Shown here one piece after another: positions 2,241 to 33,890 of a stretch of 64,000 nucleotides of DNA. The translations under genes and the position numbers were made by a program. Source of the DNA: Escherichia phage JM17; the sequence record PP400779. One strand, 5' to 3'. The number at the start of each line of letters is the position of its first letter. The first letter of the stretch is position 1. The notes below the pieces were generated by a model. It saw nothing but the letters and a program-made list of their open reading frames with translations. It did not search any database and was not told where the DNA came from.

Positions 2241-2280
2241 GTTTACATAAGGATGATGGTGTGTTACTATCATCCTATCA
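2241..2280 (+). promoter_or_regulatory. early sigma70-type promoter (GTTTAC -35, TACTAT -10) with GGATGAT/ATCATCC inverted repeat
   Basis: GTTTAC at 2241-2246, about 17-nt spacer, TACTAT; palindrome 2251-2275; upstream of ORF 2305. Confidence 0.5.
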
Positions 2281-2304
2281 AATAAACAACCTCAAGGAAA
2301 TAAA

Positions 2305-2616
2305 ATGAAAACCTATCAAGAATTCATCGCGGAAGCTACTAAAGCAGATAAAAATTTTGTTATTAACACTAACGGCCCGTTAGATGATGAATACGCTAAT
2401 GCTATTATTAAGTCAATTTCTAATCAAGGCGTTGAAGTATCAAATTTCGAATATAAGAAAAATGATACTTATATGGTAATTAGTATCAAAAAAGGTTCAA
2501 AGGCTAAAATTAAATCTGCATTTGGTGTTATGCGAGTCGACCAAATCGATAACCACGATTTTTCACAAACAGGGGTTAAACGCCAAAATACCATTTCTTC
2601 TAAAGGCATAAAATAA
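2305..2616 (+). CDS. internal protein (IP)-like; N-terminal capsid-targeting sequence MKTYQEFIAE
   Basis: 103 aa; first 10 aa equal the T4 IPIII capsid-targeting/prohead-protease leader as recalled. Confidence 0.6.
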   Translation: MKTYQEFIAEATKADKNFVINTNGPLDDEYANAIIKSISNQGVEVSNFEYKKNDTYMVISIKKGSKAKIKSAFGVMRVDQIDNHDFSQTGVKRQNTISSKGIK

Positions 2617-2656
2617 TTTACAACACGATAGGACTATGTTATAGTAGTCCTATCAA
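2617..2656 (+). promoter_or_regulatory. PeSL-like early promoter cassette (TTTACA ... TATAGT inside palindrome ATAGGACTA/TAGTCCTAT)
   Basis: perfect 9-bp inverted repeat flanking the -10 hexamer; the same core recurs near 2955, 8003, 9300, 18835, 57800. Confidence 0.5.
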
Positions 2657-2677
2657 AACAACCAAATGGAACCTAAA

Positions 2678-2941
2678 ATGAAAACTTTCAACGAATTCAT
2701 CTCAGAATCATCTGGTGTGAAAATTAACAAAGCGGTCAATCAGGTTATTGCTGATATTCTTAATTTGTATAACATTGACTTAACTCCGCATATCACGCTT
2801 GGTAACAAACGAAACTTTTTCGTATTTGACACATCCGAACTTGATGAAAATCAGTTCAATAATATTCAACGTTTTGCTAATGATAAAGGTCTTCGACACG
2901 AGCCTGGTGGCTATAAAAAATACGCAATATATTTGAAATAA
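2678..2941 (+). CDS. internal protein-like (leader MKTFNEFISE)
   Basis: CTS-like N-terminus; alternative ATG at 2666. Confidence 0.5.
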   Translation: MKTFNEFISESSGVKINKAVNQVIADILNLYNIDLTPHITLGNKRNFFVFDTSELDENQFNNIQRFANDKGLRHEPGGYKKYAIYLK

Positions 2942-3010
2942 AGGTATACAAGCCTATAGGGATATGTTATAGTAGTCCTATCAAAACAAATGAGTAAATG
3001 GAGAAATAAA

Positions 3011-3196
3011 ATGAAACGCGCTGAACTGATTCGTAATGTTGCTGTAGTAATTGCTTCAATGGCTTTTAGTTTTTCGATGTTTGTAGGATTCATTTGCGGA
3101 CTACTGACAACAACTGAAAATTCTATCTCATTGGTAGTAGCATTTCTAATCGGTTTAATCGCTATCGTTATGGATAAAATTGCAAAAGGCGAGTAA
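3011..3196 (+). CDS. small membrane protein (two predicted TM helices)
   Basis: GGAG 7 nt upstream of ATG 3011; hydrophobic stretches. Confidence 0.4.
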   Translation: MKRAELIRNVAVVIASMAFSFSMFVGFICGLLTTTENSISLVVAFLIGLIAIVMDKIAKGE

Positions 3197-3197
3197 A

Positions 3198-3560
3198 ATG
3201 AAATATCACGTATATGCGGATTTTGAAGCAAATCCTTCTAAAGACCCCGATTGTCGTTTGATACGCAGACCATTTGATTCAGCAGCTCAAGCCTGGGCCT
3301 GGATTAAAACTTGTACTCCTTCTTACACTTTCTTTGAAGTGGTAGACGATAACGGTGTTCTGCATCCAGAACCTACAGAAACTATTAATTTCCTTCTGTT
3401 TGCTGGTTATGACTGTTATCCTCTTGGTGGTATTGACGACCTTGTTGCTACAGGAAAAACTTTTGAAGCTCTTCGCGAAATTTATAAAAACGCGGAAGAA
3501 AATTTTGACTGGTATCATATTGTTGATGCTCATACCTTTGAAATGGTGGAACATTCATGA
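3198..3560 (+). CDS. hypothetical protein
   Basis: ORF with ATG 3198 two nt after the upstream stop; no motif recognised. Confidence 0.4.
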   Translation: MKYHVYADFEANPSKDPDCRLIRRPFDSAAQAWAWIKTCTPSYTFFEVVDDNGVLHPEPTETINFLLFAGYDCYPLGGIDDLVATGKTFEALREIYKNAEENFDWYHIVDAHTFEMVEHS

Positions 3561-3841
3561 TTCTTTATGCTAAAGTATCGTCCATTGAGAACGGATATGA
3601 AAGCGACCAACGTGCAGCTAAAGCACTAGTTAATGACTACGGTATTCTGACTATCTTTGAGGTTGAAAAGGTTTATATCGACCGTTCATCTTCGCAAGTT
3701 AAATTACTCTGTGAAGACGATAAATTTAACACAGTTAACTTTGATTTCTTTATTGAAACAGAAAAAGGCCCTCTTGAATATGACATTTTCAAGAATCCTT
3801 TAGGACTTGATTGCATTCAGAACACATACACAATATGGTGA
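3557..3841 (+). CDS. hypothetical protein
   Basis: ATGA start/stop overlap with upstream ORF. Confidence 0.4.
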   Translation: MILYAKVSSIENGYESDQRAAKALVNDYGILTIFEVEKVYIDRSSSQVKLLCEDDKFNTVNFDFFIETEKGPLEYDIFKNPLGLDCIQNTYTIW

Positions 3842-3962
3842 GAAATCGTTTTGCCAACTGTTAAAATGATTGATTTGCTTTAAGAATTATGTGTTATTAT
3901 TAATTCATACCCTCTATTACCAAAGGTACTCTAAAGTGCCTTTCATAATAGAAAGTTATTTA

Positions 3963-4036
3963 GGCCCTGTAGCTCAATGGTTAGCAGCAGTCCCCTCATA
4001 AGGGAAAGGTTACCAGTTCGAATCTGGTCTGGGTCA
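3963..4036 (+). tRNA. tRNA with anticodon CAU (Met, or Ile2 if lysidine-modified)
   Basis: hand-folded cloverleaf: acceptor GGCCCTG/CTGGGTC (one U-U mismatch), D-loop with GG, anticodon loop CUCAUAA, T-arm ACCAG-TTCGAAT-CTGGT. Confidence 0.6.
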
Positions 4037-4042
4037 TATATT

Positions 4043-4119
4043 CGAGGCATAGCTCAATTGTATAGAGCAACGGATTTCTAATCCGTAGGTTGAAGGTTAG
4101 AATCCTTCTGCCTCGACCA
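4043..4119 (+). tRNA. tRNA-Arg (anticodon UCU), CCA encoded
   Basis: acceptor CGAGGCA/TGCCTCG, D-stem GCTC/GAGC, anticodon stem ACGGA/TCCGT with loop TTTCTAA, T-arm GAAGG-TTAGAAT-CCTTC, discriminator A plus CCA. Confidence 0.85.
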
Positions 4120-4435
4120 AATAAGAAGCCGGGTCGCTACCGGTAAGTCGTCGGACTGATGTTCCCTGAGTAAGGACTGGTCTTAATAAATCTTTACGAT
4201 TTGTTAATATCCCCTTACATCACAGCAGAAACGGCGCACCGAATTATCGATTCGAGGAAATATCTTTGCCGTAAGCCGAGTAGCGTTTTTGACGGAACGT
4301 TCGGATATGGTCGAGATATGGCCTTTTAAAAATATTGAGTAGCGTCAACTGCTTAATAACCGGGTTCGAATCCCGGCGTTTCGTACAAACACTTGCCTTA
4401 GCAGGTGGGACCCCGACAAGGTTGCCGCAAGGCTT
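4120..4435 (+). ncRNA. non-coding region after the tRNAs with tRNA-like T-arm (CCGGG-TTCGAAT-CCCGG at 4360-4376); candidate stable RNA or decayed tRNA
   Basis: no credible ORF; T-loop motif present but no full cloverleaf could be folded by hand. Confidence 0.25.
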
Positions 4436-4466
4436 AGCCCCTTCCTTATGGTTGGGGCTTTTTGGC
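4436..4466 (+). terminator. rho-independent terminator, copy 1 of a hairpin repeated three times
   Basis: CCCCTTCCTTATGGTTGGGGCTTTTTGG. Confidence 0.6.
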
Positions 4467-4508
4467 ATAATAATAAATAGATAAGTTAATTAACTTAGGA
4501 AAAGCAAC

Positions 4509-4973
4509 ATGAAATCATACGCTGAATTTTTGACTGAACAATCTAGTTCAGATGTAAAAGCCGCTGCGATTGCAGCAATTCAAGCAGGTAAATATTCTTA
4601 CAAAGACGCCTCTGATGAAGAACGTTTCCGTTTTATTAGAGATTTTAAAGCCGAAGGTTTTACTAATGCTAATACTGTTAGCCGAGTTTTTAAAAGCCTA
4701 GCTGCATCAGGTGAATTGTTCCAGAAAGCTACAGGTAAAGCACCTGCGCCAAAAGCGGACCCTAAAGCAGCTCAAGAAAAAAATATCGCCAAAGGAATTA
4801 TTTCTAAGTATGAAGCAATTCTTAAAGAGCTTTTAGTAATCAAAACAGAAGGACAGAAACTGGCACGAGCACATAGCTTCAAAGATAATCCTCACGCTCA
4901 TAGCCTTGAGTATGTTGAAGATATCCAAAAACTTATTAAAGACCGTATCTGGTCTGCTAAACAAATTAAATAA
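4509..4973 (+). CDS. internal protein-like basic protein (leader MKSYAEFLTE)
   Basis: 154 aa, Ala/Lys-rich; CTS-like N-terminus. Confidence 0.5.
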   Translation: MKSYAEFLTEQSSSDVKAAAIAAIQAGKYSYKDASDEERFRFIRDFKAEGFTNANTVSRVFKSLAASGELFQKATGKAPAPKADPKAAQEKNIAKGIISKYEAILKELLVIKTEGQKLARAHSFKDNPHAHSLEYVEDIQKLIKDRIWSAKQIK

Positions 4974-4979
4974 TAGAAT

Positions 4980-5010
4980 GCCCCCTTCCTTATGGTTGGG
5001 GCTTTTTGGT
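4980..5010 (+). terminator. rho-independent terminator, copy 2
   Basis: same 28-nt hairpin plus T-run as 4436-4466. Confidence 0.6.
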
Positions 5011-5097
5011 ATCTAGGGCATAAAAATATTTCATAAAGATGTTTACTTCTTCCCTAGATGTGTTACTATAGACCTATAAAAACATGAGGAAAATATT

Positions 5098-5403
5098 ATG
5101 AGTCTTTATACTGAACTGAATAAAAAATCTGAAGAATCTGCTGAAACTATTTTTAAAAACGTGCAAAAGCGTATTTTAGAAAAGATGTATAACACTGCAG
5201 CTAAAGGTGAAAAATCTTGCCGGTTTCCGATTAGGTGTTCTTCAGATTTATGCGCAAATACTATTGAATGGCTGGAAAGTGAAGGTCTTACGGTAGAGAA
5301 AAACCCGGCGACTTCTATTGACAGCGAATCATATATTAGTATTTCTTGGGATAAACCACGTATGAATGAAGGACACTACAAGTTGTTAAGTTGGAAAAAT
5401 TAA
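5098..5403 (+). CDS. hypothetical protein
   Basis: ORF behind a GTTTAC...TACTAT promoter and GAGGAAAA SD. Confidence 0.4.
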   Translation: MSLYTELNKKSEESAETIFKNVQKRILEKMYNTAAKGEKSCRFPIRCSSDLCANTIEWLESEGLTVEKNPATSIDSESYISISWDKPRMNEGHYKLLSWKN

Positions 5404-5471
5404 AAATAATGATGTACAAGCACCAAGGATGGTGATACTATAGACTTATCAACTACAGAGGAGTAAACAAA

Positions 5472-5636
5472 ATGACTACTTTAATTATTTGGTTCGATGA
5501 AAATGAAGAAACATACTGTGTGAATATTGGTGAAAGTCCAATGCCTGAATTTGAATCCTCGGATAAAAACTCTGTTGTATCTTGGGCTGAAGGTTATAAA
5601 GCCGCTAAAGGTGACGTTGAAATAATTTACATCTAA
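5472..5636 (+). CDS. small hypothetical protein (54 aa)
   Basis: not in track (under 60 aa); ATG preceded by AGAGGAG and a TGTACA...TACTAT promoter. Confidence 0.3.
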   Translation: MTTLIIWFDENEETYCVNIGESPMPEFESSDKNSVVSWAEGYKAAKGDVEIIYI

Positions 5637-5683
5637 GTACGTTTATGTTATAGTAATCACATCAAATCAAGAGGAGAAACAAA

Positions 5684-5911
5684 ATGGCTACAGTTAGTAT
5701 TGATGTCGTTGATTATGAATACACTGAAGAAGTTATTCGCAACCGTCACCCTGAAGTTCGTATCGATTCAGTCCAAGATTCCAAGTTTTGGACAACTGAG
5801 CTTAATCTGAGCGGTCCTTATGAAGCTGTTAAGAAGTTCATGGTTGAAGAATACTGCGAAGGCATGCACCCCGAAGACACCAAGTTTTATGTCAATTTGA
5901 TTAAAAAATAA
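5684..5911 (+). CDS. hypothetical protein
   Basis: ORF with SD AGAGGAGAA. Confidence 0.4.
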   Translation: MATVSIDVVDYEYTEEVIRNRHPEVRIDSVQDSKFWTTELNLSGPYEAVKKFMVEEYCEGMHPEDTKFYVNLIKK

Positions 5912-5960
5912 TTTACAAACTCTTGAGAGCAGAGTATAATGCTCTCGTTGGATAATAAAC
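5912..5960 (+). repeat. PeSL-like promoter cassette, copy A of a duplicated ~48-bp element
   Basis: ATTTACAAACTCTTGAGAGCAGAGTATAATGCTCTC...GGATAATAAA; nearly identical copy at 33140-33188. Confidence 0.6.
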
Positions 5961-5981
5961 CACCAATTGAAAGGTAATAAT

Positions 5982-6575
5982 ATGAACACACTGAAGAAAC
6001 TTGTTGAATTCATCCGCACTAAACTGGGTACTGCTATGGCTAAAAATCTGACTGTCGAAGAACAGTATAACGCAGCTGCAGATAAGTTGATCACCCAAAT
6101 CAAAGAACTAAAAACGGCTTCTGTTAAATCTATTAATGAAGAAAAACGTATTCGCGAACTTGTTAATGAAAAGAACAAGCAAGCCGCTTCTAAGGAACGT
6201 GAAATTCGTAAGCTCCTGGCTGAAGGACAAGATGTTACTATGCATGCTAAGCTTGGTCTTCTGTATCGTCGAACCGCCGAACAACTTAATACAAAAGCTG
6301 ACGGGTATGCCGCTATGCGAATTGAAATTGCTCGTAAGGTGGTTGAACTTGATGATGCTCGTCAGAATCTGGCAATCAAACTCGAATACATTCGTGAAAC
6401 TCGAGCAGCCAATGCCCTTGGTATCTCTACGGCTGATGATGTAATTGAAATCGCTGCACTGACTAAGGTTGATATCGAAGACACTCTGACTCGTGTTGAA
6501 ACGTTCAATGGCACTCCAGCCGGCGTCGAAACCACTTCTGCTGATGTACAAGAATATATTAACTCTTTGAAATAA
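5982..6575 (+). CDS. coiled-coil protein, possibly PspA/IM30-like
   Basis: 198 aa, heptad-rich Lys/Glu/Ala composition; GAAAGG SD; family assignment tentative. Confidence 0.35.
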
Positions 6576-7987: not shown

Positions 7988-8049
7988 AACAGTTTACAAC
8001 AAGATAGGGCTATGTTATAGTAGTCCTATCAAATTAAATGGAGTCCACA

Positions 8050-8289
8050 ATGATTTATTACGAAAGTATTGGAACCAAAGTGGTTGCTAAAACTATTACT
8101 CGTGAAAAGTTTGCAAAGATATTCGATATGCGTTATAAAAAATCTGAACACAAAGGCATCCGATTCGAAGATGCGCACTGTACAATTTGCCCTTATAATG
8201 AAGACATAAACGGTACAATCGTTCCATTGGTAGAAGCTTCACATGATGACCTCTGGGATGAATATAATATCGCATGTCGTGAAATTTAA
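8050..8289 (+). CDS. hypothetical protein
   Basis: ATG 8050 after GGAG (alternative ATG 8038); Cys/His pairs present. Confidence 0.35.
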   Translation: MIYYESIGTKVVAKTITREKFAKIFDMRYKKSEHKGIRFEDAHCTICPYNEDINGTIVPLVEASHDDLWDEYNIACREI

Positions 8290-9274: not shown

Positions 9275-9344
9275 TTTCGCAAAACTGTTTACACAATTAT
9301 AGGACTATGTTATAGTAGTCCTATTAAAACATGAGGAGAATATT

Positions 9345-9650
9345 ATGAAATTAGGCGAAACCAATCGAATCGGTCTTTTTACAATATTTGCATCACCTTT
9401 TTACGTAGCTCTTTCTGTTGCAGTATTACAAAAGGCTTACAGTATGGATGGTGTTCCTGGTTTTGTATTCTTATCACCGTTTTTATTATTCGTCGGAGCT
9501 TTGTTATTATATGCCACGACTAGTTTCGACCATAACGTTTGGGTTAATTATAAATGTAAATTGTCTGAAGAAGAACACGCAGAAGCTCGTAAAAAAGCTA
9601 TTGAATCTACCAATCTAGAAAATTTCATTAAAGAATGCCGAGGAAAATAA
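9345..9650 (+). CDS. small membrane protein
   Basis: two hydrophobic helices. Confidence 0.4.
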   Translation: MKLGETNRIGLFTIFASPFYVALSVAVLQKAYSMDGVPGFVFLSPFLLFVGALLLYATTSFDHNVWVNYKCKLSEEEHAEARKKAIESTNLENFIKECRGK

Positions 9651-11512: not shown

Positions 11513-11544
11513 AATAAATACCTCCTATAAACGTGGGAGGTATT
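11513..11544 (+). promoter_or_regulatory. RBS-sequestering hairpin with embedded late-promoter-like AATAAATA upstream of gene e
   Basis: stem TACCTCC (11519-11525) / GGAGGTA (11536-11542) contains the SD GGAGG; ATG at 11545. Confidence 0.5.
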
Positions 11545-12033
11545 ATGAATATATTTGAAATGCTTCGTAATGACGAAGGTCTTAGACTGACTTTATACAA
11601 AGACACTGAAGGCTTTTGGACGATTGGCATAGGCCATTTGGTAACAAAGAACCCGTCTTTAGCCATAGCTAAAGCTGAACTTGACAGAATTATCGGACGT
11701 AAATGCAACGGTACAATTACCCTTGATGAGGCTGAAAAGCTATTTAATGAAGACGTTGATAAAGCCGTTCGCGGAATCTTGGGTAATGCTAAACTTAAAC
11801 CGGTATATGATTCTTTAGATGCGGTTCGTCGATGTGCATTGGTCAATATGGTCTTCCAAATGGGTGTAGCAGGCGTCGCCGGTTTTACTAATTCTCTTCG
11901 TATGCTTCAACAGAAACGTTGGGACGAAGCGGCAGTAAATCTAGCCCAATCTAAATGGTATCGTCAGACACCTAATCGCGCGAAACGCGTAATCTCAACA
12001 TTTAAAACAGGAACTTGGAAAGCGTATATATGA
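11545..12033 (+). CDS. e: lysozyme (endolysin, T4 gene e)
   Basis: [32 protein letters not shown]... near-identical to T4 lysozyme as recalled; catalytic E11/D20/T26 context present. Confidence 0.95.
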
Positions 12034-12313: not shown

Positions 12314-12370
12314 GTTTACTTCCTCCAAGGGTTTTGATACTATACATTCATCAACTACTTGGAGGAAATT
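12314..12370 (+). promoter_or_regulatory. PeSL-like promoter: GTTTAC, TACTAT, arms TTCCTCCAAG / CTTGGAGGAA (anti-SD / SD)
   Basis: left arm lies in the promoter spacer; right arm carries the SD before ATG 12371. Confidence 0.5.
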
Positions 12371-12480
12371 ATGACCCGTCCGAAGCGTCCATTGCGATAA
12401 ATCAAGCACGCTTAGATGAAAAAATTGCTCAACGTCCGACTTGGTACAAATACTTTGGTAAATCAATTTACTAAGGAAAA

Positions 12481-12741: not shown

Positions 12742-12806
12742 ATTGTTTACGCTTAAGTATTAATATGGTATATAATTACTCTATCAAAACAAACAAGGAA
12801 ACAAAA

Positions 12807-13109
12807 ATGAAAACATATCAAGAATTTATTACTGAAGCGCGAGTGAGTGCAGGTAAATTAGAAGCCGCTATAAATAAAAAGGCCCATTCATTTCATGATT
12901 TGTCCGATAAAGACCGTAAGAAACTTGTAAGCCTTTATATTGACAAAGAGCGTATTCTCGCTCTTCCTGGCGCTAATGAAGGTAAACAGGCCAAGCCTTT
13001 GAATGCTGTCGAAAAGAAAATTGATAACTTTGCTTCTAAATTCGGTATGTCTATGGATGACCTTCAGCAAGCGGCTATCGAAGCAGCTAAAGTAATTAAA
13101 GGTAAATAA
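12807..13109 (+). CDS. internal protein-like (leader MKTYQEFITE)
   Basis: CTS-like N-terminus; GTTTAC...TATAAT promoter and AAGGAAAC SD upstream. Confidence 0.55.
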   Translation: MKTYQEFITEARVSAGKLEAAINKKAHSFHDLSDKDRKKLVSLYIDKERILALPGANEGKQAKPLNAVEKKIDNFASKFGMSMDDLQQAAIEAAKVIKGK

Positions 13110-13220
13110 CAGTTTACTTCTCCTAGAATTGTGATAGTATATTCATAATTCTAGGAGGGGTAAATACAGAAATGGACAATTCATGTGCCACGGAATGGCC
13201 CAACATAAAAGAGAAACTAA

Positions 13221-15129: not shown

Positions 15130-15134
15130 AGTAG

Positions 15135-15190
15135 TTTACTTCTCCTCTAGTTGTGTTACTATAGACCTGTCAACTAGAGGAGAAATCAAA
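15135..15190 (+). promoter_or_regulatory. PeSL-like promoter: GTTTAC, TACTAT, 12-bp arms CTCCTCTAGTTG / CAACTAGAGGAG
   Basis: -35 at 15135-15140, -10 at 15157-15162; right arm contains the SD for ATG 15191. Confidence 0.5.
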
Positions 15191-15649
15191 ATGACTATCA
15201 ATTCAGACGTTTTTATCCGCCGTAATAAACTCCGTCGAATCTTTGAAACGGAGTTCCGCAAAATAAATGCCGGTATAAAAGATGCTGCAAAGTCTCTTGG
15301 ACTACCAGGCTTTCATATCAAGTATTCTCAACATCTCTTAGATCGTGCCATCCAGAGAGAAATAGATGAGAATTACGTTTTTGAATTATTTCATAAAGTA
15401 AAAAATCATGTTAAAGAAGTTGCAGAATTTTTATCAATGCCGGCACGTCCAGATGTTGATGAAGATTTTGTCGAAGGTGTCGAATATCGCCCAGGCCGTT
15501 TAGAAATAACTGATGGAAATCTTTGGTTAGGACTTACAGTTTGTCGCGAAAATCCAGCATTCAAAATGAAGACTCTTCAATGCAGAATGGCTATTATTAA
15601 CAGTAAACGACTACCAGGAAAAGCTTCTAAAGCAGTGATTAAAATCTAG
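15191..15649 (+). CDS. hypothetical protein
   Basis: 152 aa; no motif recognised. Confidence 0.45.
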   Translation: MTINSDVFIRRNKLRRIFETEFRKINAGIKDAAKSLGLPGFHIKYSQHLLDRAIQREIDENYVFELFHKVKNHVKEVAEFLSMPARPDVDEDFVEGVEYRPGRLEITDGNLWLGLTVCRENPAFKMKTLQCRMAIINSKRLPGKASKAVIKI

Positions 15650-18326: not shown

Positions 18327-18332
18327 TTTACT

Positions 18333-18363
18333 AGCCCCTTCCTTATGGTTGGGGCTTTTTGGC
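18333..18363 (+). terminator. rho-independent terminator, copy 3
   Basis: same hairpin as 4436 and 4980. Confidence 0.6.
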
Positions 18364-18427
18364 ATCTATCAGTTTACTTCTCCTCAGGTTGTGTTATAGT
18401 AGTCCTTACTTACTAGAGGAGAACGTT

Positions 18428-18821: not shown

Positions 18822-18985
18822 TTTACATCTTGGTAGGACTATGTTATAGTAGTCCTATCAAAACAAACGGAGAACAAAATGAAACTTTTGCTTATCGCTT
18901 ATGTTGTAGTACAATACAATTATCCGATGTTTACCTATAACATGGTAAACGGCATAGTGAATCTTATTGAAACGAGTATGGTAAA

Positions 18986-21467: not shown

Positions 21468-21575
21468 ATGTGGGGACCTTCGGGTCCCTTTAGGGGGTTA
21501 AAATATTTTTAAAAAGTAGTGTACATGCTTTTAGGATATGTTATTATAGACCTATCAAAACAAGAGGAGAACAAA

Positions 21576-21794
21576 ATGAAAACCAAAATGTTAGAAATGA
21601 TTCGTGAAGCCGGTGATAAAGGTCTTATGGTTAACACTCGTGATGCAGACCAACGTCAAGCATTCGGTGAACTGAAAGCTAAAGGTCTAGTTAAAGCATC
21701 CTTAGGAATCGGTAATGCATTACGAGTCACCTTAACCCCAGCCGGTAAAGCAGTGTTCTTTCAACCTCTTACCAAAAAATCTCGTCGCAAATAA
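21576..21794 (+). CDS. small basic protein, possibly DNA-binding
   Basis: ATG 21576 after AGAGGAGAA. Confidence 0.35.
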   Translation: MKTKMLEMIREAGDKGLMVNTRDADQRQAFGELKAKGLVKASLGIGNALRVTLTPAGKAVFFQPLTKKSRRK

Positions 21795-21863
21795 TTGTTT
21801 ACTTTTGCTTTAAACATGTTATTATAGACCTATCGAAACGAAATGAGTAAATTGGAGAATAAA

Positions 21864-22844
21864 ATGTTCAACGTTCAAATCAAAAAAGGTATCTACCGTA
21901 ATAACGAAATCTCTGGTTCTTATGTTGCCACAAAGACCTGGTTCCCGGCAAAGCTTAATCCTGAATGTTCCCACTTAGGTGATGGTAAAATTTTCGTTAT
22001 GATTGATGGTTCTGAACGTGGAGTATGGGTCTTCAAATCAGACATCGTAATGGAAGGAGTTGAGACATCACCGGTTGCAGTTGTTGAAAGCACCGAAGAT
22101 ATGAAAACTCGTATCAACAAACGCTTTAAAGTAATGAACATGATGACGAATGGCATTATCGATGGCAAAATTCGTTCACTCATTATTTCAGGTGCAGCTG
22201 GTATTGGTAAGACGTATTCTCTGGATAAAGCACTTAATAATGCTAATGATAATGGTTTCATCAAATACAAAAGCATTAATGGTAAAATCTCTGGTATTGG
22301 CCTTTACGAACAACTTTGGCTCAACCGTGATGCAGACAGCGTTCTCTTAATCGACGACGTTGACGTATTCTCAGATATGGACATCTTGAACCTTCTTAAA
22401 GCAGCATTAGATACCGGAGATAAACGCAAAGTTTGTTGGAGCACTGCGTCATCTTATCTCGATGATAAGGGTATTGATAAAGAATTTGAGTTTGAAGGTA
22501 CTATCGTTTTCATTACAAACGTTGATATCGATAAAGAGTTAGAACGCGGTTCGAAACTTGCTCCACACCTTCAAGCTTTAGTATCTCGTTCAGTGTATCT
22601 CGACCTTGGAGTACACTCTAATGAAGAGATTATGGTTCGAGTTGAAGATGTAATATTATCTACTGACATGATGCAGAAACGTGGTCTGACGGATGCAGAA
22701 ACGTATAAAGCATTGTCCTGGATGAAGGCTAATGTATCTCGTCTTCGCAATGTATCATTACGTACCGCTCTTTATGTAGCAGATTTTATTTCAACTGATA
22801 AAGATGGTTGGGAGGAAATCTCTGAAGTAACTTTACTGAAATAA
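21864..22844 (+). CDS. AAA+ / P-loop ATPase
   Basis: Walker A ISGAAGIGKT, Walker B VLLIDDVD; alternative start 21843. Confidence 0.5.
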   Translation: MFNVQIKKGIYRNNEISGSYVATKTWFPAKLNPECSHLGDGKIFVMIDGSERGVWVFKSDIVMEGVETSPVAVVESTEDMKTRINKRFKVMNMMTNGIIDGKIRSLIISGAAGIGKTYSLDKALNNANDNGFIKYKSINGKISGIGLYEQLWLNRDADSVLLIDDVDVFSDMDILNLLKAALDTGDKRKVCWSTASSYLDDKGIDKEFEFEGTIVFITNVDIDKELERGSKLAPHLQALVSRSVYLDLGVHSNEEIMVRVEDVILSTDMMQKRGLTDAETYKALSWMKANVSRLRNVSLRTALYVADFISTDKDGWEEISEVTLLK

Positions 22845-23269: not shown

Positions 23270-23327
23270 TTGTTTACAAGGTCTATGGTTATGTTATTAT
23301 AGACCTATCAACTACTGGAGGTAAAAC

Positions 23328-23855
23328 ATGAACGCTAAAGATATTTTCAACCTGGTAAATTATAACGACGGTAAATTTAAATCTGAAGCACAAAGTAAGT
23401 TCTTTAATGACATTGCTTATGGTAACGAGATTACCGTGGACGGAGGTCAGATTTTCAAATCTCGCTGGAATTGGATTGTTATCATCGATTCAGTTGGAAT
23501 TGTGGAAGTCTACAAAAACACTAACAAAAAACGTACATTATTCTGGTCTCGTGAAACTAACGAGCAGTACAAAAAGGATAAAGCATCTCGTTTATCCAAA
23601 GTAACCCAGGAAGATATCGACTTCATTAAGAAAGATATCGAGATGTACGAAAATTTAATCGCTGAAGACCAGGCAGTACTCGATAAGTTTGATGAAATTA
23701 AAGCTTCTCGTGAAATCCCTGACTTCATGAAAGAAACAGTAAACGAACGATACGCTCTCACTTCAGAACGTATTGCAAACTATACAAAACAGAAAGCAGA
23801 ACGTATTAGTACTCTTCGGAAATTTGAAGAACGTTTAAAGACGGTTCACGCATAA
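23328..23855 (+). CDS. hypothetical protein
   Basis: 175 aa; SD GGAGG. Confidence 0.4.
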   Translation: MNAKDIFNLVNYNDGKFKSEAQSKFFNDIAYGNEITVDGGQIFKSRWNWIVIIDSVGIVEVYKNTNKKRTLFWSRETNEQYKKDKASRLSKVTQEDIDFIKKDIEMYENLIAEDQAVLDKFDEIKASREIPDFMKETVNERYALTSERIANYTKQKAERISTLRKFEERLKTVHA

Positions 23856-23917: not shown

Positions 23918-24913
23918 ATGAGCATTACATCTGATGCGGTAAAACATGAAATTAACGGTTTATGTGCTTCACAGATTAAAGTGTGGTTTAAAGACCATAA
24001 TGATCGCAGAGCACTTAATTATGAGCAAATTGCTATCCAAGTTCATCAATTACTGGTTAGTAAATTTGATTTTCATATGCCGTCTGAAATCTATACTAAT
24101 CTGCCGCGAGCACTTATTAAAGCGTGTAAAGGTTACGGAAAATCAATGGCTGATGGAATCTTCAGCGCGCTGAATAAACTTAACGTTCTGTCGATGATTA
24201 ACTCTAACAACATCCTGCGTAATCTAGGACGTACTGATTTGTTCGGCCGTGAACAGGGTAAAATGCCTTTGAAATGGATTGTTGCTCATCTTAACGAGAA
24301 CCAAACACGTTTTATGGCCGTAACAGCACGTTTACAAATGGGCCTAGATCGTCAGATGAACTTTAAAACTCATCCATGTTATTCAGGTTCAACAAACTTT
24401 TATAAATGTGAGCTTCAAAAGGTCGGTGGCAAAACTGTCTTAGTAGTTCGTGTAACGTTTGAAGGACGACGTCAAGGATATTTTGACATAATCGGCTCTG
24501 GCCTTAAACATTGTGGATTTATCGACGAAGTTGATATCAAGCGAGACGGCATTGGATACCGTATTGGATATGTTTGTACTCTTAAAGAAGAGATTTCAGG
24601 ACCAGCACCAGGACTAAAAGACGTTAGATATAAAGACGAGCTCGTTGAAGAAATAAAAGAAGTTGAATATGATATCAACCAAGAAGATGCTCTTAAAGAC
24701 CTTATTGATGAACTGAATCAAGACGTTATTCCGGTTCAGAAATTTGAATCAAAACATGCTGAGCAAATCAAATACTTTGAAGCTTTGATTAACGAACTTA
24801 ATGTAACTATTCAACAGACTGACGATGAAATCTCACGATTAGCAGGCTTAAACGGTAAAAATAAAACAGAACGAGCTAATCTTATTCAAGTAGTAAAACT
24901 TCTTAAGGAATGA
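23918..24913 (+). CDS. hypothetical protein with coiled-coil C-terminus
   Basis: 331 aa. Confidence 0.45.
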   Translation: MSITSDAVKHEINGLCASQIKVWFKDHNDRRALNYEQIAIQVHQLLVSKFDFHMPSEIYTNLPRALIKACKGYGKSMADGIFSALNKLNVLSMINSNNILRNLGRTDLFGREQGKMPLKWIVAHLNENQTRFMAVTARLQMGLDRQMNFKTHPCYSGSTNFYKCELQKVGGKTVLVVRVTFEGRRQGYFDIIGSGLKHCGFIDEVDIKRDGIGYRIGYVCTLKEEISGPAPGLKDVRYKDELVEEIKEVEYDINQEDALKDLIDELNQDVIPVQKFESKHAEQIKYFEALINELNVTIQQTDDEISRLAGLNGKNKTERANLIQVVKLLKE

Positions 24914-24970
24914 TGTACAACCAAGGATGGTTGGAGTATAATGAATCTATCTTAACGAGAGGAAAATATT

Positions 24971-25924
24971 ATGACACGTTCACATTACATTGATTATTTT
25001 GCAGGTCTTATCGCTAACGTTCATGCCCAACGTGCTTCTGGTTCATTAGGATTTGATGTTCCACACCGAGTTGTAGTAAGTGGTATTCTTCGCGATTTTG
25101 GTACATACACAGGCCAAGAAAATCATATCTGTAAAGATACTCAGAATGCGTATTCTCATTCATTAGGGACACTGCTTCAATGGTTCAAACGTTCTCGTTT
25201 ATTATCTTCTACTGTAGCTCGCGATAACATTAAAAACTTTATGAAGCCGAGCTTTATTAAATCTGCGACATCTAAAACCGATTTGGTTGAATTCACTATT
25301 GTTAATGATGTTAAAAAGACTCATTTGGCTGATTGGTTATCTACCATTCCTGAAACTAAATTTGCTGATAAATTTGCTTGTGAATTCAATAACCAAGTGA
25401 ATATGCTTTTTAAACATTCTCGTAAATTATTTACAGGTGGCGATGGTCGTACAAATAAAGTTCATGCTAAAGATTGGGTTACTGCAGTATTCAAACCAAC
25501 CGGTAATGGTAACGCATCATTGTCAATTGATATCCAGGTTCCTTATTACTACTCACGTAATCTCGGTACCATGAAAGCCGAAGAAATTAATAAGCGCAAC
25601 AAAACCGTTCGTTCGCTGTCTTATAAACTTTGTACGATGTTACAGATTATGGATGTTGTTGAAATGTTCGACGAAACCGAAGATAACGGTTCAATGTTAT
25701 TCAGTTCTAATATTCGAATTAAGCTGAAGAACCCTAATACATATAAACCTAAGCCTATTAAAGAACCTAAAGTAGAAAAAGTTGATAACTTAAGAGAAGA
25801 ACGCGAATATCTCAAATCTCGTCTGAAAGAAGTCGAAGCCCAGATTGCAGAACAGACTAAATCGTTAAAAGCTCTGAATGCGAAAGCGGATGGTTTACGA
25901 AATGCCATTGAGGTATTGAAATGA
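24971..25924 (+). CDS. hypothetical protein with coiled-coil C-terminus
   Basis: 317 aa. Confidence 0.45.
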   Translation: MTRSHYIDYFAGLIANVHAQRASGSLGFDVPHRVVVSGILRDFGTYTGQENHICKDTQNAYSHSLGTLLQWFKRSRLLSSTVARDNIKNFMKPSFIKSATSKTDLVEFTIVNDVKKTHLADWLSTIPETKFADKFACEFNNQVNMLFKHSRKLFTGGDGRTNKVHAKDWVTAVFKPTGNGNASLSIDIQVPYYYSRNLGTMKAEEINKRNKTVRSLSYKLCTMLQIMDVVEMFDETEDNGSMLFSSNIRIKLKNPNTYKPKPIKEPKVEKVDNLREEREYLKSRLKEVEAQIAEQTKSLKALNAKADGLRNAIEVLK

Positions 25925-27062: not shown

Positions 27063-27190
27063 ACCGTGGTATTCGGCTCGATGGGAGACAGTCGAGCCAG
27101 ACGTCGAAACAGTTTACAACGACGAAGAAACATGTTATGATGAGCCTTCAATAAATGAATTAATTGATATGGAAATGGGAAGAGATTATT

Positions 27191-27400: not shown

Positions 27401-27874
27401 ATGTTATTATCAGGCGCAAAATATAAAGAAGAAAAACAAAAATTTTATGATGCACAGAATGGTAAGTGTCCTATTTGCCACCGTGAATTAGACCCTGATG
27501 TTCAAGGTAACCATCTTGACCACGACCACGAATTAAACGGGCCAAAAGCAGGTAGAGTTCGTGGGTTACTCTGTAATCTGTGCAACGCAGCAGAAGGTCA
27601 AATGAAGCATAAGTTCAACCGTTCCGGTCTTAAAGGACGTGATGTCGACTACCTCGAATGGCTTGAAGCTCTTCTTGTTTATTTGAAACAAGATTATTCT
27701 GATAATAATATCCATCCTAATTTTGTTCCAGACAAAACTAAAGAGTTCTCAAGACTAGGTAAAGAGGAAATGATGGCTGAGATGCTTCAAAGAGGATTTG
27801 AATATAATGAATCTGACACCAAAACACAGTTAATAACTTCATTTAAGAAGCAGCTTAGAAAGAGTTTAAAATGA
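27401..27874 (+). CDS. 49: endonuclease VII (Holliday junction resolvase, gp49)
   Basis: 157 aa; CPICHREL...HLDHDHE...CNLCN zinc/HNH-like motifs. Confidence 0.9.
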   Translation: MLLSGAKYKEEKQKFYDAQNGKCPICHRELDPDVQGNHLDHDHELNGPKAGRVRGLLCNLCNAAEGQMKHKFNRSGLKGRDVDYLEWLEALLVYLKQDYSDNNIHPNFVPDKTKEFSRLGKEEMMAEMLQRGFEYNESDTKTQLITSFKKQLRKSLK

Positions 27875-28692
27875 ATGTAGTATATAAACTATCATTTATT
27901 AGTAGAATTAATGCTAAAACCCCGCCATATTATTATATTGGAAGTAAAACCAATTGCACTTTTGACGGAACGAATATTATTGATAAAAATGGTAAATTTT
28001 ATTATTCGTCTTCGTCATCTTCCGAATTTCAAAAAGCTCTGTTGAAAGAAACACCGAAAGTTGAAATATTATATTTTCAATTAGTCGGAGATGAACAAAT
28101 AACTAGCATTGAAGCTGAATTTCAAAAGAATATAGAAAAAGATATATGGAATAAAGAGTATTTTAATTTAGCATATGCTAATGGTCAATTTACAACGTAT
28201 GGTGTTTCTCCTTCTAAAGAAACTAGAGAAAAGCAATCAATAACCATGATTAAAAGAAATCGTAATAAAGGTAAAAATCATGGATTTTATGGAAAGCATC
28301 ATACTAATTTAGCCAGAAAGAAAATATCAGAAGCTTCTAAAAAATACTGGAAAGAAAATCCACATCATGGATTTTCGCACACAAAGGAAGCTAAAATTAA
28401 AATTGGAATTTCATCTTCTATCAGGCATAAAGGAAGTGGAAATCCGATGTACGGCGTAAAACCTTGGAAAACTCCTAGAGCAATTAAATCTGGTACTTAT
28501 ATATTATGGTTAAAATACGCAGAAATTTTATATGATTATTTAGGTCCGGATTTTAAAAGTAAATCATCTATTTTTGCGGAGTTAAATTTACCGAAATTTA
28601 GAATTGATAATTTCATCAAAAGGTTTAAAATGGGTTGGAACCCATATTTAGACGAAGAATTTCAAAAGGATAAATTAGAATTATGTCTTTAG
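27871..28692 (+). mobile_element. free-standing GIY-YIG-type homing endonuclease gene
   Basis: VYKLSFI...YYYIGSKTN catalytic motif; NUMOD3-like repeats GKNHGFYGKHH and GSGNPMYGVKPW; AT-rich. Confidence 0.55.
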
Positions 28693-31293: not shown

Positions 31294-31295
31294 TT

Positions 31296-31902: not shown

Positions 31903-32069
31903 CCAGGTGCCGCCTGGTCTTCTTTATCTCATTTCTAATATAATCCATTGGAATCTTCACTTCACTATCTCCTTGTGCCCCTCTCAAATCAAAAATATTT
32001 TCATAAAACCAGTTTACATCCTCGATAGATATGTTAAGATTAACACCATCTACTATAGAGGAAAATAAA

Positions 32070-32252
32070 ATGACAATTGAAGATAAAGAAATTAAGGTTG
32101 ACCAGTACTATTCGGTCAACGGTAATGCAGTACAGATAACCAAAGTTTCAAGCCTGGATGTTTGGTACCGTTCAATCAAATATCCAGAAATTGGTGAAAT
32201 GATTTGTGACCGTGGTATCTTCTGTTCAATTGCGAAGGAAATTAAGTCATGA
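32070..32252 (+). CDS. small hypothetical protein
   Basis: ATG after AGAGGAAAA. Confidence 0.35.
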   Translation: MTIEDKEIKVDQYYSVNGNAVQITKVSSLDVWYRSIKYPEIGEMICDRGIFCSIAKEIKS

Positions 32253-32497
32253 TTAGTTTAGATTCAAAGAAAGTTGTTCTAACCCTTAAAGTTAATGACG
32301 AACGTCCGGTATTCGTTACCATTTCCGATTTGCATGTTGAAATTGCTAATGACGTTCGTACTTATCAAGCAAATAAAACTCATTGGGATTATATCCCGAT
32401 GTTGACGCTTACTCAGCGTTTAGAATCAATCGGTCTTAAAGACCTTTCAGTAAGTGAAGTGAATTTTATCAAACGCGTTGTATCAATCAACCTCTGA
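32249..32497 (+). CDS. hypothetical protein
   Basis: ATGA overlap. Confidence 0.4.
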   Translation: MISLDSKKVVLTLKVNDERPVFVTISDLHVEIANDVRTYQANKTHWDYIPMLTLTQRLESIGLKDLSVSEVNFIKRVVSINL

Positions 32498-32504
32498 GGT
32501 ACTT

Positions 32505-32798
32505 ATGGGTAAAACATATCGTCGTAAAGATTTGAAAGTTCGCGATTACGACTATTTTGGTAAGCGTAAAGCTCCTGACGGTGTTAGCCACAAAGACATG
32601 GTTGAAAACATTTTCCGCTCAGATAAATGGAAACGTATGAAAGGCATTGATTCTGAAGTCAAGAATGAAATGAATCGACAACTCCGCAAAGAAGTTCGTA
32701 AGTTGAAAAAAGATGTTTACAGTAAAGAAGAGTATGATTATAATACTTCTCATACTGAAGCCAAACGTAAAGCTAACGAATGTTATCGTTACAGTTGA
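32505..32798 (+). CDS. hypothetical basic protein
   Basis: ATG after GAGG. Confidence 0.4.
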   Translation: MGKTYRRKDLKVRDYDYFGKRKAPDGVSHKDMVENIFRSDKWKRMKGIDSEVKNEMNRQLRKEVRKLKKDVYSKEEYDYNTSHTEAKRKANECYRYS

Positions 32799-32936
32799 GG
32801 AAATTATGAATATCAAACGAATGCTTTTTAAGCAGGGATTATATACTTTAAATGTTAATCCAAAGGGTGATACAACTAAATGGTCTGTAAATGACTGGAT
32901 TAAGTTCATCGATGAAAATGGGGCGTGGAACACAAA

Positions 32937-33137
32937 ATGAATCCTGAAAATATTGTGTCATGGCAACTTCGTGAAGAACGTGCCGAATTCTTTGCCAATA
33001 TGAAACTCAACGGCGTTGAGGATGAAGACTTCTTACGCTGGTTCTGGATTTACAAATACAAAGAATGCCAGTACGCTGTACTACTGACTTGTGCAGTTAT
33101 GTACGAAGGCTGGAAAGGCGCTAAAAAGTTCGGATAA
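32937..33137 (+). CDS. hypothetical protein
   Basis: ATGA overlap. Confidence 0.4.
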   Translation: MNPENIVSWQLREERAEFFANMKLNGVEDEDFLRWFWIYKYKECQYAVLLTCAVMYEGWKGAKKFG

Positions 33138-33139
33138 CG

Positions 33140-33188
33140 ATTTACAAACTCTTGAGAGCAGAGTATAATGCTCTCATTGGATAATAAA
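33140..33188 (+). repeat. PeSL-like promoter cassette, copy B of the duplicated ~48-bp element
   Basis: identical to 5912-5960 except one base (CTCTCATTGG versus CTCTCGTTGG). Confidence 0.6.
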
Positions 33189-33206
33189 ATAACCGAGGAA
33201 AATAAT

Positions 33207-33539
33207 ATGTCTACTAAAATCAAAAACGTAGTTAATTCTTTCGCTTTCGATAAAGTTGTTGCTCTTCTGGAATCCGGCAATATTGTTACTCCTCAAGTTC
33301 TTGACGCATGGGAATTCCGTCTTTATGAAATCATGCAAAAACACGACCAGAAAATTGGACGTAATTCTATTCGCGAAATTCTAGTACAATATATTCTTTC
33401 TGAATTTGACGTTGCTGCATTTGGTGTTGAATCTAAAGCTTATCAGAAACATGAAATCTCTGAAAAGACTATCCGTCGTATGAAAAATCAGCGTAAGAAA
33501 AAATTCGTTGACCTGAAAATTGTTAAGGCGGCAAAATGA
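33207..33539 (+). CDS. hypothetical protein
   Basis: ATG after GAGGAAAA. Confidence 0.45.
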   Translation: MSTKIKNVVNSFAFDKVVALLESGNIVTPQVLDAWEFRLYEIMQKHDQKIGRNSIREILVQYILSEFDVAAFGVESKAYQKHEISEKTIRRMKNQRKKKFVDLKIVKAAK

Positions 33540-33763
33540 GCGTATTAACAGAAACCTTTATTAATGACCTGCGTCTAGCTGGTTACGAAGTTGGTACAAA
33601 TAGCCTAGGTCTTCCTCAGATTGAAGGTCCTGGATTTATTCTAGAATACGAATTCAAACAATGGTGGTTATATGCTACGGTTGACGATGCGTTAAATATT
33701 GATTTTGTTGACCAATTTGATTCGTTGGATGCCGCCTTATTTGCAGCAAAGGAAATAGAATGA
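33536..33763 (+). CDS. hypothetical acidic protein
   Basis: ATGA overlap. Confidence 0.4.
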   Translation: MSVLTETFINDLRLAGYEVGTNSLGLPQIEGPGFILEYEFKQWWLYATVDDALNIDFVDQFDSLDAALFAAKEIE

Positions 33764-33853
33764 AACTATCTTGAATCGCTATAACCGAAGAAAAGTTTGG
33801 TGAATTTTAAGTCGATAACTTTATGAAAGTTACGTATCTTTGATAGTATCTCG

Positions 33854-33890
33854 TGCTTTAAGATAGGTCTCTAAATATTATGATATAATA
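33854..33890 (+). promoter_or_regulatory. candidate middle-type promoter (MotA-box-like TGCTTTA plus TATTAT/TATAAT) inside palindrome ATAGGTCT/AGACCTAT upstream of gene 55
   Basis: TGCTTTA at 33854-33860; -10 candidates 33876-33890; inverted repeat flanks. Confidence 0.35.

Follow-up and report, generated by a model that had tools for sequence, protein, structure and literature searches.

The 64,000-nt stretch of Escherichia phage JM17 DNA analysed here (sequence record PP400779; hereafter the window) carries a series of short early-promoter cassettes, many of which contain an inverted repeat. In our reading, the cassettes are immediate-early modules of the T4 type, and in a subset of them the promoter DNA probably gates translation: it would supply the 5' arm of an RNA hairpin that hides the Shine-Dalgarno (SD) sequence or the AUG of the promoter's own gene on RNA reading through from upstream. 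As we envisage it, a cassette consists of an A-rich upstream region, a GTTTAC -35, a spacer of 17-18 nt, a TGn-extended -10, a leader of 20-30 nt, an SD and an ATG. In the gating subset (regB, denV, modB, mobD.2a, 55.6 and the ORF040c homologue, with weaker pairing in cassettes 5041 and 56045), the 3' arm of the hairpin would be the SD or AUG of the gene itself. RNA begun locally would not include the 5' arm and would have a free ribosome binding site (RBS), and RNA from upstream promoters would fold the stem once the SD emerges, concealing the SD both from ribosomes and from RegB, which needs a single-stranded GGAG. We infer that the gated genes would be translated only from their own immediate-early promoters, in a short pulse that would stop once the early promoters are shut off and RegB cuts the local transcripts. 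Such a pulse would suit dose-sensitive enzymes such as the RNase RegB, the endonuclease DenV and the ADP-ribosyltransferase ModB. This rationale is limited to regB, denV and modB, since the only Pfam match among the products of the open reading frames (ORFs) after the class 2 cassettes defined below is DUF7438, in mobD.2a, and the products of 55.6, ORF040c and ORF041c have no Pfam match.

The window comes from a T4-type coliphage, an RB69-like Mosigvirus, and covers its prereplicative (early) region, with the genes on the plus strand. Its identity to NicPhage, APCEc01, RB69 and similar phages is about 97-98%, and its order is that of the RB69 reverse complement, collinear from about 76.5 to 12.5 kb. 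Positions 2241-33890 span the ipI/tRNA region followed by e, denV, regB, tk, rI, the nrdC genes, 49, nrdD/G and the 55.x genes, and the cassettes at 56-64 kb fall between gene 41 and modA.

Stems between promoter and ribosome binding site

We curated 29 cassettes, all on the plus strand, and folded each of them both as read-through RNA and as RNA from the predicted +1. The read-through RNAs have folding energies of -12 to -32 kcal/mol, and the local RNAs are essentially unstructured at about 0 to -3 kcal/mol, which is the direction expected by a first-pass annotation of this DNA. A significant stem is present in about 17-19 of the 29 cassettes and missing from about 10. The classes given below come from ungapped arm detection with a score threshold; this replaced a classification by minimum-energy fold, which over-called structures of -2 to -7 kcal/mol as class 2.

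The stems are not a product of chance, because native cassettes fold better than chimeras made of the upstream half of one cassette and the downstream half of another (mean -12.8 versus -9.6 kcal/mol, with 0 of 20000 permutations as low as the native set), and because the z-score against shuffled spacers is -3.3 or lower in about 11 cassettes. That the palindromes are nonetheless chance, or unselected hitch-hikers on duplicated cassettes, is scarcely credible. The class 1 arms at 2616, 7992, 9287, 18821 and 57790 are nearly identical and probably mutual copies of one another, and about a third of the cassettes have no stem, as hitch-hiking would allow. Against this stand the two controls just given and the covariation between lineages at orthologous genes described in the next section. 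Further, the class 1 stems are themselves selected, since from lineage to lineage their arms and the discriminator sequence vary in step.

We group the stems in three classes. In class 1, with about nine cassettes (2241, 2616, 2944, 5911, 7992, 9287, 18821, 23272 and 33140, the one at 2944 being degenerate), a stem of 7-12 bp joins a 5' arm located in the spacer to a 3' arm that begins with the final base of the -10 and extends to about +3; the loop contains the -10, and the RBS is free. Class 2 includes cases in which a CTCC-containing arm in the spacer pairs with the SD. There are six strong ones: the denV cassette at 12314-12373 (TTCCTCCAAG/CTTGGAGGAA), an orphan cassette of the internal-protein type at 13112-13174 (CTCCTAGAATTGTGA/TCATAATTCTAGGAG), the regB cassette at 15134-15193 (TTCTCCTCTAGTTG/CAACTAGAGGAGAA), the mobD.2a cassette at 18372-18430 (TTCTCCTC/GAGGAGAA), the 55.6 cassette at 32012-32072 (TCCTCGATAG/CTATAGAGGA, one mismatch), and the cassette upstream of the ORF040c homologue at 56479-56536 (TTCTCCAGTAGTTG/CAACTACCGGAGAA, one A.C mismatch). 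Two more are weak, one at 5041-5100, with weak anti-SD pairing only, and one at 56045-56106 (TTCCTCT/AGAGGAA), upstream of the ORF041c homologue. Class 3 is the single modB cassette at 63149-63207, in which the -10/discriminator arm ATGATAGGCTT pairs with the SD-AUG region AGGTCTATCAT. The first-pass annotation had described two kinds of palindrome, one around the -10 and one joining the spacer to the SD. Both are real, and the arms that it quoted for its main example, regB, are exact: CTCCTCTAGTTG at 15142-15153 and CAACTAGAGGAG at 15171-15182. Its count of more than 20 cassettes up to 27 kb is roughly right, as we find about 20 promoters between 2.2 and 27.2 kb, but placing each of them in a palindrome was an overstatement, since about 12 of these 20 have a significant stem.

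To compare RBS accessibility, we computed an opening cost, the free energy needed to unpair the stretch from SD to AUG, on read-through and on local RNA. At the six strong class 2 cassettes and at modB the SD or AUG is predicted to lie in a stable helix on the read-through RNA. The computed opening cost for classes 2 and 3 is higher there by +7 to +13 kcal/mol (+9.6 at denV, +10 to +11 at regB, +7.2 at 55.6, +11 to +13 at the ORF040c homologue and +13.3 at modB), versus a difference of about 0-2 kcal/mol for the other cassettes. T4 carries both hairpin classes at orthologous genes, and the extra opening cost at T4 regB, denV, nrdC.8 and modB is +9.6 to +13.1 kcal/mol. With the 5' arm located either in the spacer, between -30 and -17, or in the -10/discriminator, between -11 and -1, any possible start lies downstream of it, and the stem is confined to read-through RNA, whatever the exact start. 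Read-through itself is documented, as T4 early transcripts are known to run on into downstream genes (PMC2988021).

Several observations weigh against gating as an account of the cassettes. The occluding type is limited to 7-9 of the 29; the earlier proposal that the RBS is occluded on read-through RNA alone finds computational support in classes 2 and 3, from the opening costs and from covariation, but does not extend to most cassettes. The SD-like sequence masked by the stem at 13112 belongs to no ORF. The class 2 complementarity (TTCTCC/GGAGAA) could in part arise where a shared promoter subfamily (repeat family D3) meets the SD consensus, and the independent evidence for class 2 pairing is carried by the inner stem alone. 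The cassettes at 18372 and 56045 also have a terminator upstream, so read-through there may be small. Class 1 stems are likewise confined to read-through RNA and leave the RBS untouched, a role that gating does not explain; the candidates are attenuation, 3' protection of the upstream cistron after a RegB cut in the downstream SD, or RBS insulation. Nor is the hairpin class fixed for a given gene, as nrdC.8 has a class 2 stem in T4 and a class 1 stem here (23272-23330, AGGTCTAT/ATAGACCT). Finally, the most distant regB lineages that we compared (L079-L082) have no regB stem.

The position of the stems next to the upstream gene raises the question of termination. No T-run follows any cassette stem, no cassette stem is flagged in the terminator scans, and an A-rich leader follows the 3' arms. 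We rejected the reading of the stems as intrinsic (Rho-independent) terminators on this lack of T-runs behind them. Terminators are present as separate elements upstream of the promoters. The D12 terminator repeat (GCCCC...GGGGCTTTTT; GCCCCTTCCTTATGGTTGGGGCTTTTTGG) has three plus-strand copies of 45 nt, at 4427-4471, at 4971-5015 directly upstream of cassette 5041, and at 18324-18368 directly upstream of cassette 18372. Other separate terminators precede the cassettes at 56045 (GGAGAC-TTCG-GTCTCC-TTT) and 61671 (with a T-run). Upstream terminators are named here only as seen in the sequence itself. In the original proposal for promoter-early stem-loops (PeSLs), the stems are attenuators or terminators for RNA polymerase arriving from upstream, and the overlap with the SD would be incidental. 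We consider this unlikely for the stems here. A PeSL stem-loop of RB49/phi1 placed before lacZ cut expression as much as the rrnB T1 terminator did (PMC2839356), and class 1 stems sit just past the upstream stop codon, where a terminator is expected. However, that assay read lacZ output and not termination itself, the true terminators of the window are the separate elements just described, and at regB, denV and modB the 3' arm is always on the SD or AUG, despite changing arms and geometry, which attenuation does not need.

Upstream stop codons lie 6-10 nt before the 5' arm at 12314, 13112, 15134 and 56479, which would suit translational coupling, in which a ribosome ending the upstream ORF opens the stem on read-through RNA. 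A terminating ribosome unwinds about 7 nt beyond the stop codon, its usual footprint. It would reach at most the outermost one or two pairs of stems that are 10-15 bp long. The -10/discriminator arms, more than 25 nt from the stop codon, are out of its reach, and at 18372 a terminator separates the cassette from the upstream ORF. Coupling is in our view very improbable.

Compensatory change across T4-like lineages

The case for gating is strongest in comparison between phages. The evidence that the pairing itself is maintained comes from the upstream regions of regB, denV and modB, which we drew from IMG/VR viral contigs. Among about 13 regB lineages, the RBS is sequestered by a promoter-borne arm in at least 11, and the inner stems differ from one to another, as in TCTAGTTG/CAACTAGA, TCTTGACTG/CAGTTAAGA, TCTTTATG/CATAAAGA, TGTAAGT/ACTTACA, TTTTAGT/ACTAAAA and ATTTGATTGTG/CACAAACAAAT. 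Two lineages use a -10-to-AUG stem instead, and one (L065) pairs a GAGGA SD that has no GGAG. Native regB regions fold at -21.3 kcal/mol versus -11.9 kcal/mol for cross-lineage chimeras, a loss of about 9 kcal/mol, and of 120 permutations the native one alone is that low. In anchored extracts of the arms, used in place of a MAFFT alignment of whole cassettes that put the stems out of register, 8 of 11 pairs are changed on both sides; the four outer pairs (positions 1-4) are fixed by the anchoring and carry no evidential weight. The regB covariation score of 0.457 compares with 0.163 in shuffles, none of 500 reaching the native value, and with 0.07-0.11 when the register is slid.

For denV, the SD or AUG is sequestered in about 27 of 36 distinct upstream sequences, by at least 12 unrelated arms and in two geometries, either spacer to SD or -10/discriminator to SD-AUG. 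Three lineages with the second geometry (L096, L103 and L113) have a stem that covers the AUG. The mean fold of the native denV read-through RNA is -19.4 kcal/mol, that of chimeras -12.1 and that of local RNA -1.0, and 0 of 20000 permutations are as low as the native set. The modB stem, which includes G.U pairs, is common to T4, RB69-like phages and a third lineage (L083/84); the ModB search of viral contigs gave three loci only, and the evidence for modB is thin. Together, these comparisons support the view that pairing of the RBS at regB, denV and modB has been maintained by compensatory changes across many T4-like lineages, T4 included. In JM17 denV itself is deleted with its class 2 promoter cassette intact, and the gene is kept in all seven relatives that we compared. 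The remnant at 12367-12400 has the ATG at 12371 followed by 9 codons; RB69 positions 64557-64855 are missing, with a junction microhomology of 13 nt (AATTATGACCCGT).

The same comparisons bear on whether the repeats act as RNA or as DNA. Internal mismatches in strong stems are G.U versus A.C by 9 to 2 in a first set. In a larger set of 54 stems, from 178 distinct cassettes, they are 23 to 7 (p = 0.003), or about 16 to 6 once evident homologues are counted as one, and the small and partly non-independent sample counts against putting much weight on the ratio. G.U and A.C were scored in the arms with equal penalty, since a folding algorithm biases any count made on its own structures. Because G.U pairs form on the sense strand only, the excess of G.U speaks for a structure in the sense RNA rather than for a cruciform or protein operator. 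Action at the DNA level, as promoter-opening cruciforms or hairpins, as sites for a dimeric protein such as a repressor, or as targets of a recombination protein, is quite unlikely. In its favour, the -10 always falls within the loop or where the 3' arm begins, indel junctions fall inside stems and the PeSL authors raised a stem-specific recombination protein, and the mechanism of T4 early-promoter shut-off is not understood (PMC3014915). Still, the arms are unrelated between cassettes and lineages with complementarity alone conserved, and we rejected a common protein operator for this lack of shared sequence. In classes 2 and 3, the 3' arm follows the SD or AUG, which is meaningless in DNA, and loops of 17-30 nt make poor cruciforms.

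A reading closer to ours is that class 2 and 3 stems serve mainly to shield an intergenic GGAG from RegB on polycistronic RNA, keeping the downstream cistrons intact. RegB cuts single-stranded GGAGRAYARAA and is inhibited by secondary structure, 16 RegB-resistant GGAG sites of T4 sit in stable structures, the denV SD of T4 resists cutting by RegB in vivo, and the modB RNA of T4 has structure in vitro (PMC1702504). Many cassette SDs here fit the RegB consensus, and three match it exactly (GGAGAACAAAA at 18821, 21519 and 56479). We nonetheless find it doubtful that shielding is the main role. Stems of the second geometry, as in the three denV lineages named above and in modB, reach over the AUG, and the regB lineage L065 pairs an SD without GGAG. 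A paired SD also stops ribosomes regardless, and the two effects are compatible; the gating explanation includes shielding as a second consequence. T4 regB is tightly controlled, with RegB cleaving its own SD (PMC3014915 section 11), and control of regB has been ascribed to promoter shut-off and self-cleavage only, with no description of a stem between SD and spacer (PMC3014915, PMC1702504).

We put forward, tentatively, a wider version of this proposal: dose-sensitive immediate-early genes across T4-like myoviruses may be translated only from their own promoters, with read-through RNA untranslatable and RegB-resistant. The set licensed in this way would have regB, denV and modB as its core, with nrdC.8 as a lineage addition in T4 and 55.6, mobD.2a and ORF040c as additions here. 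The promoter DNA would be dual-coding, with the spacer or the -10/discriminator serving also as an anti-Shine-Dalgarno arm, and so under two constraints, recognition by RNA polymerase and RNA pairing. This dual constraint would explain the conserved spacer sequence of early promoters, which has been noted in promoter alignments without interpretation. If the wider version is true, the immediate-early class would have a post-transcriptional definition, and the abrupt stop of early protein synthesis one of its causes. In T4, a founding model of gene regulation, the sharp end of early protein synthesis is only partly explained, promoter shut-off and RegB being the known contributors. If class 2 and 3 stems work as predicted, they would add a third, hard-wired layer, in which long read-through and middle-mode transcripts are silent for the gated genes. 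The design is testable in T4 itself, because the same stems are found at T4 regB, denV, nrdC.8 and modB. Gating stems would also matter for re-use of these promoters or for gene moves within such genomes.

The same logic is known at T4 late promoters. In T4 e, soc, 49 and I-TevI, the RBS is hidden in a hairpin whose 5' strand holds the late promoter (PMC3014915 section 29). There, and by prediction in classes 2 and 3, the SD or AUG is paired on RNA begun upstream; transcripts of the proximal promoter start within the 5' arm or past it, and they alone are translated. The T4 cases have gp55-dependent late promoters (TATAAATA), and their expression is delayed to late infection. Classes 2 and 3, in contrast, have an immediate-early sigma-70 promoter (GTTTAC/TGn/TAnnnT), and the predicted effect is the reverse, expression in the first minutes only. 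The published list of genes gated at late promoters does not include regB, denV, modB or the other genes proposed here (PMC3014915). As a positive control, the gene e hairpin is present in the window at about 11516-11545 (AATACCTCCTAT...GTGGGAGGTATT, then ATG), with a late-promoter-like AATAAATA at its 5' arm.

Early promoters and module exchange

The cassettes are built on early promoters of the sigma-70 type, with A-rich DNA on the upstream side and an SD and ATG on the downstream side. The motif GTTTAC-N16-19-TANNNT has 23 matches in the window versus 4.0 expected. A position-weight model trained on the core -35 and TGn/-10 blocks alone gives 30 sites on the plus strand and 1 on the minus strand, versus 0-2 per random sequence of equal composition (about 0.4 on average). 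By both counts, the promoter motif proposed in the first-pass annotation is real. The model sites are confined to the variable regions, at 2.2-33.2 kb or 56.0-63.8 kb, and there are none in the core replication/recombination block at 33.2-56.0 kb. In the consensus, an A-rich upstream region leads into GTTTAC, which is followed by a 17-18-nt spacer, TGT-TAnnnT and then AG(T/A)CCTATCAA (as a string, ...ataa.tttcataaAa.aGTTTACat ... TaTGTTAt.AT). It agrees with the published early promoter of T4 and RB69, including the preference for C at -3 to -1 (PMC1524935, PMC2988021), and the predicted early promoters of those phages share with it the GTTTAC -35, the TGn, the -10 and an UP-like region. As the match includes these C residues, we place the predicted transcription start at the A of the conserved CCTATCAA (ATCAA), 7 nt past the -10, in agreement with the RB69 logo (PMC1524935). 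An ATG follows 26-41 nt downstream of the -10 in 26 cassettes. The cassettes are dispersed repeats, 60-90% identical over about 60 nt. In RB69, 57 early promoters have already been predicted, of which 13 precede novel ORFs (Nolan et al. 2006, PMC1524935); this study and PMC2988021 are silent on inverted repeats or secondary structure at the early promoters. Model matches within coding sequence occur at 10838, 27112, 30573 and 32715. The one at 27112-27141 is a strong early promoter (score 28.4) with no palindrome, inside 49.1 and upstream of pin, and it corresponds to the T4 pin promoter site inside 49.1.

PeSLs have been published for RB49/phi1 (Arbiol et al. 2010, PMC2839356) and for T4/PST and nt-1/KVP40 (Comeau et al. 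2014, PMC4122927), in studies that did not cover RB69-type phages. They and the cassettes here have in common a strong sigma-70-type early promoter, an AT-rich upstream region, a stem-loop, an SD with ATG, a hyperplastic location, small variable ORFs nearby and indel junctions inside. On these grounds the window fits the description of a PeSL region, with a promoter, a stem (in about 17-19 of 29), an SD and start codon, the hyperplastic setting and recombination between cassettes. Class 1 stems are placed as in the commonest RB49 PeSLs, where the stem overlaps the -10 or falls between it and the -35, and the D12 terminator followed by a promoter corresponds to the T4/PST type, with the stem just upstream of the promoter. 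Unlike PeSL stems, those of the cassettes are not G/C tracts and have no U-run. None of the five published PeSL stem positions has a 3' arm on the SD or AUG, and translational gating was not proposed (PMC2839356, PMC4122927). Early promoters and PeSL shuffling are thus already known, and what appears to be new is translational gating by the early promoter's own DNA, with timing opposite to that at late promoters. We found no description of a promoter-borne anti-SD arm at early promoters in the T4 and PeSL literature examined, and a mention in the older T4 literature is possible.

As in the published PeSL model, the cassettes would act as homology patches through which recombination adds, removes and swaps promoter-plus-ORF modules. 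Comparison of the window over 2-34 kb with seven relatives (three IMG/VR contigs, RB69 and three further Mosigvirus genomes) gives 35 distinct indels. In 17 of them a boundary is located in a cassette. Counted singly, the boundaries number 70, of which 23 fall in cassettes, which cover 5.4% of the sequence, 5 in the terminator repeat and 5 at the end of the conserved internal-protein leader. The enrichment in cassettes is modest, because an indel of whole genes has to end between genes, and cassettes make up about half of the intergenic DNA; to this extent it weighs against the shuffling part of our reading. Junction homologies are the better evidence. A 177-nt ORF module missing from NicPhage and NHEP29 has its left junction in the cassette at 5412-5474 (ATGTAC -35, no significant stem) and its right junction in that at 5625-5686 (no stem), with a 33-nt overlap (5478|5656). 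Similarly, a 227-nt ORF module missing from contig L021 lies between the cassette at 21519-21578 (GTGTAC -35, no strong stem) and the nrdC.10 cassette at 21797-21866 (no strong stem), with a 53-nt overlap (21578|21806). Two insertions are exactly at a -35, one of 262 nt in NicPhage and NHEP29 at cassette 9287 and one of about 296 nt in relatives at cassette 33140; with the two modules, these insertions and the hybrid cassette described next make up four events that look as expected for recombination between cassettes. Contig L019 (IMG/VR UViG 2706795553) has a hybrid cassette at its positions 3050-3160, made of the 5' half of 2944 and the 3' half of 9287, with about 6.3 kb removed and a junction homology of 34 nt (2988|9298); with a length of only 121 kb, the contig either represents a phage with several deletions or was collapsed at repeats during assembly. 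At 24916-24968, nrdC.5 is missing relative to RB69, NHEP29 and KMB38, and the 53-nt overlap holds an ATGTAC/TATAAT promoter and a cassette-type leader, which form the weak cassette at 24913-24973 upstream of nrdC.3. The earlier suggestion that the cassettes are PeSL-like vehicles of shuffling is supported by the confinement of the promoters to variable regions and by these junctions with overlaps of 33, 34 and 53 nt inside cassettes. Such cassettes mark points of gene gain and loss in T4-type therapeutic phages.

Further boundaries are found at cassette 2944 (versus RB69, NicPhage, NHEP29 and KMB38), at 5084 in cassette 5041, where an RB69 replacement has its boundary between the start site and the ATG, and at 13158-13182 at the orphan cassette, where there are several. 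The D12 terminator copy at 4427 is a replacement boundary versus RB69, NicPhage and NHEP29, and that at 18324 is the site of a 594-nt insertion in NHEP29 and KMB38, with a 29-nt overlap. Four ORFs (at 2305, 2678, 12481 and 12807) start with the internal-protein leader MKTYQEFI (repeat families D9 and D11). Internal-protein replacements begin exactly at the end of this leader (2327, 2704/2709 and 12829/12836) and stop at the next promoter cassette. Exchange thus replaces the mature portion of an internal protein and keeps the conserved anchor on either side.

Other cassettes and neighbouring genes

Among the class 1 cassettes, that at 2241-2307 (AGGATGAT/ATCATCCT around the -10; -16.6 kcal/mol, spacer-shuffle z -3.4) lies upstream of a 103-aa internal-protein-like ORF with the MKTYQEFI start, and that at 2616-2680 (GATAGGACTA/TAGTCCTATC; -16.9 kcal/mol, z -7.0) upstream of an ipI-like gene. 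The degenerate stem at 2944-3013 accompanies a GTATAC -35 and precedes the trna.4 homologue. Cassettes 7992-8052 (GATAGGGCTA/TAGTCCTATC, one G.U; z -6.4), 9287-9347 (ATAGGACTA/TAGTCCTAT) and 18821-18881 (TTGGTAGGACTA/TAGTCCTATCAA, one G.U; z -5.0) follow the same plan; the arms ATAGGACTA/TAGTCCTAT flanking the -10, which had been pointed out before, recur with G.U variants at 2616, 7992, 9287 and 18821. The cassettes at 5911-5984 (GAGAGCA/TGCTCTC), upstream of e.6, and at 33140-33209 (TGAGAGCA/TGCTCTCA), upstream of 55.2, belong to repeat family D14. Over 49 nt (5911-5959 and 33140-33188) the two are 98% identical, 27 kb apart and upstream of unrelated genes.

The orphan cassette at 13112 has the longest stem in the window (-32.5 kcal/mol) and is homologous to the T4 ipII/ipIII promoter hairpins. 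In 13112-13182, an SD-like sequence and an ATG follow the promoter but no ORF, the one such exception among the cassettes, and it looks like a relic of the loss of an internal-protein gene.

Cassettes with no stem are found at imm.1 (57050-57110), at imm (57480-57540) and at modA (63786-63846, GTGTAC -35), and the one at 61671-61731 has no spanning stem. The positions that the first-pass annotation listed all hold cassettes, which we place at 2944 (given as 2955), 7992 (7990), 9287 (9285), 13112 (13110), 18372 (18362), 21519 (21525), 57050 (57040), 61671 (61665) and 63786 (63785). Two others on its list are cassettes in altered form. Near 12742, the cassette at 12746-12809, upstream of an internal-protein gene, has a 20-nt spacer, with TA inserted relative to a T4-like copy. 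Near 57785, the sp (spackle) cassette at 57790-57848 has a degraded promoter with a 13-nt spacer, 5 nt (TGTTA) having been lost from the spacer and extended -10 in 57790-57846; its GGACTA/TAGTCC stem is intact, and by its 13-nt spacer this promoter should be inactive.

An Rfam scan of the whole window at the gathering threshold matches no known RNA family at any cassette and reports two tRNAs only, at 3963-4116. These are tRNA-Met and tRNA-Arg, named by RB69 homology, and relatives have extra ORFs on either side (523 and 356 nt) that are missing here. Between gene 49 and nrdD, a 273-aa ORF at 27871-28692 is an insertion relative to RB69, NicPhage, NHEP29 and KMB38, and from its NUMOD3 motif it is probably a free-standing homing endonuclease.

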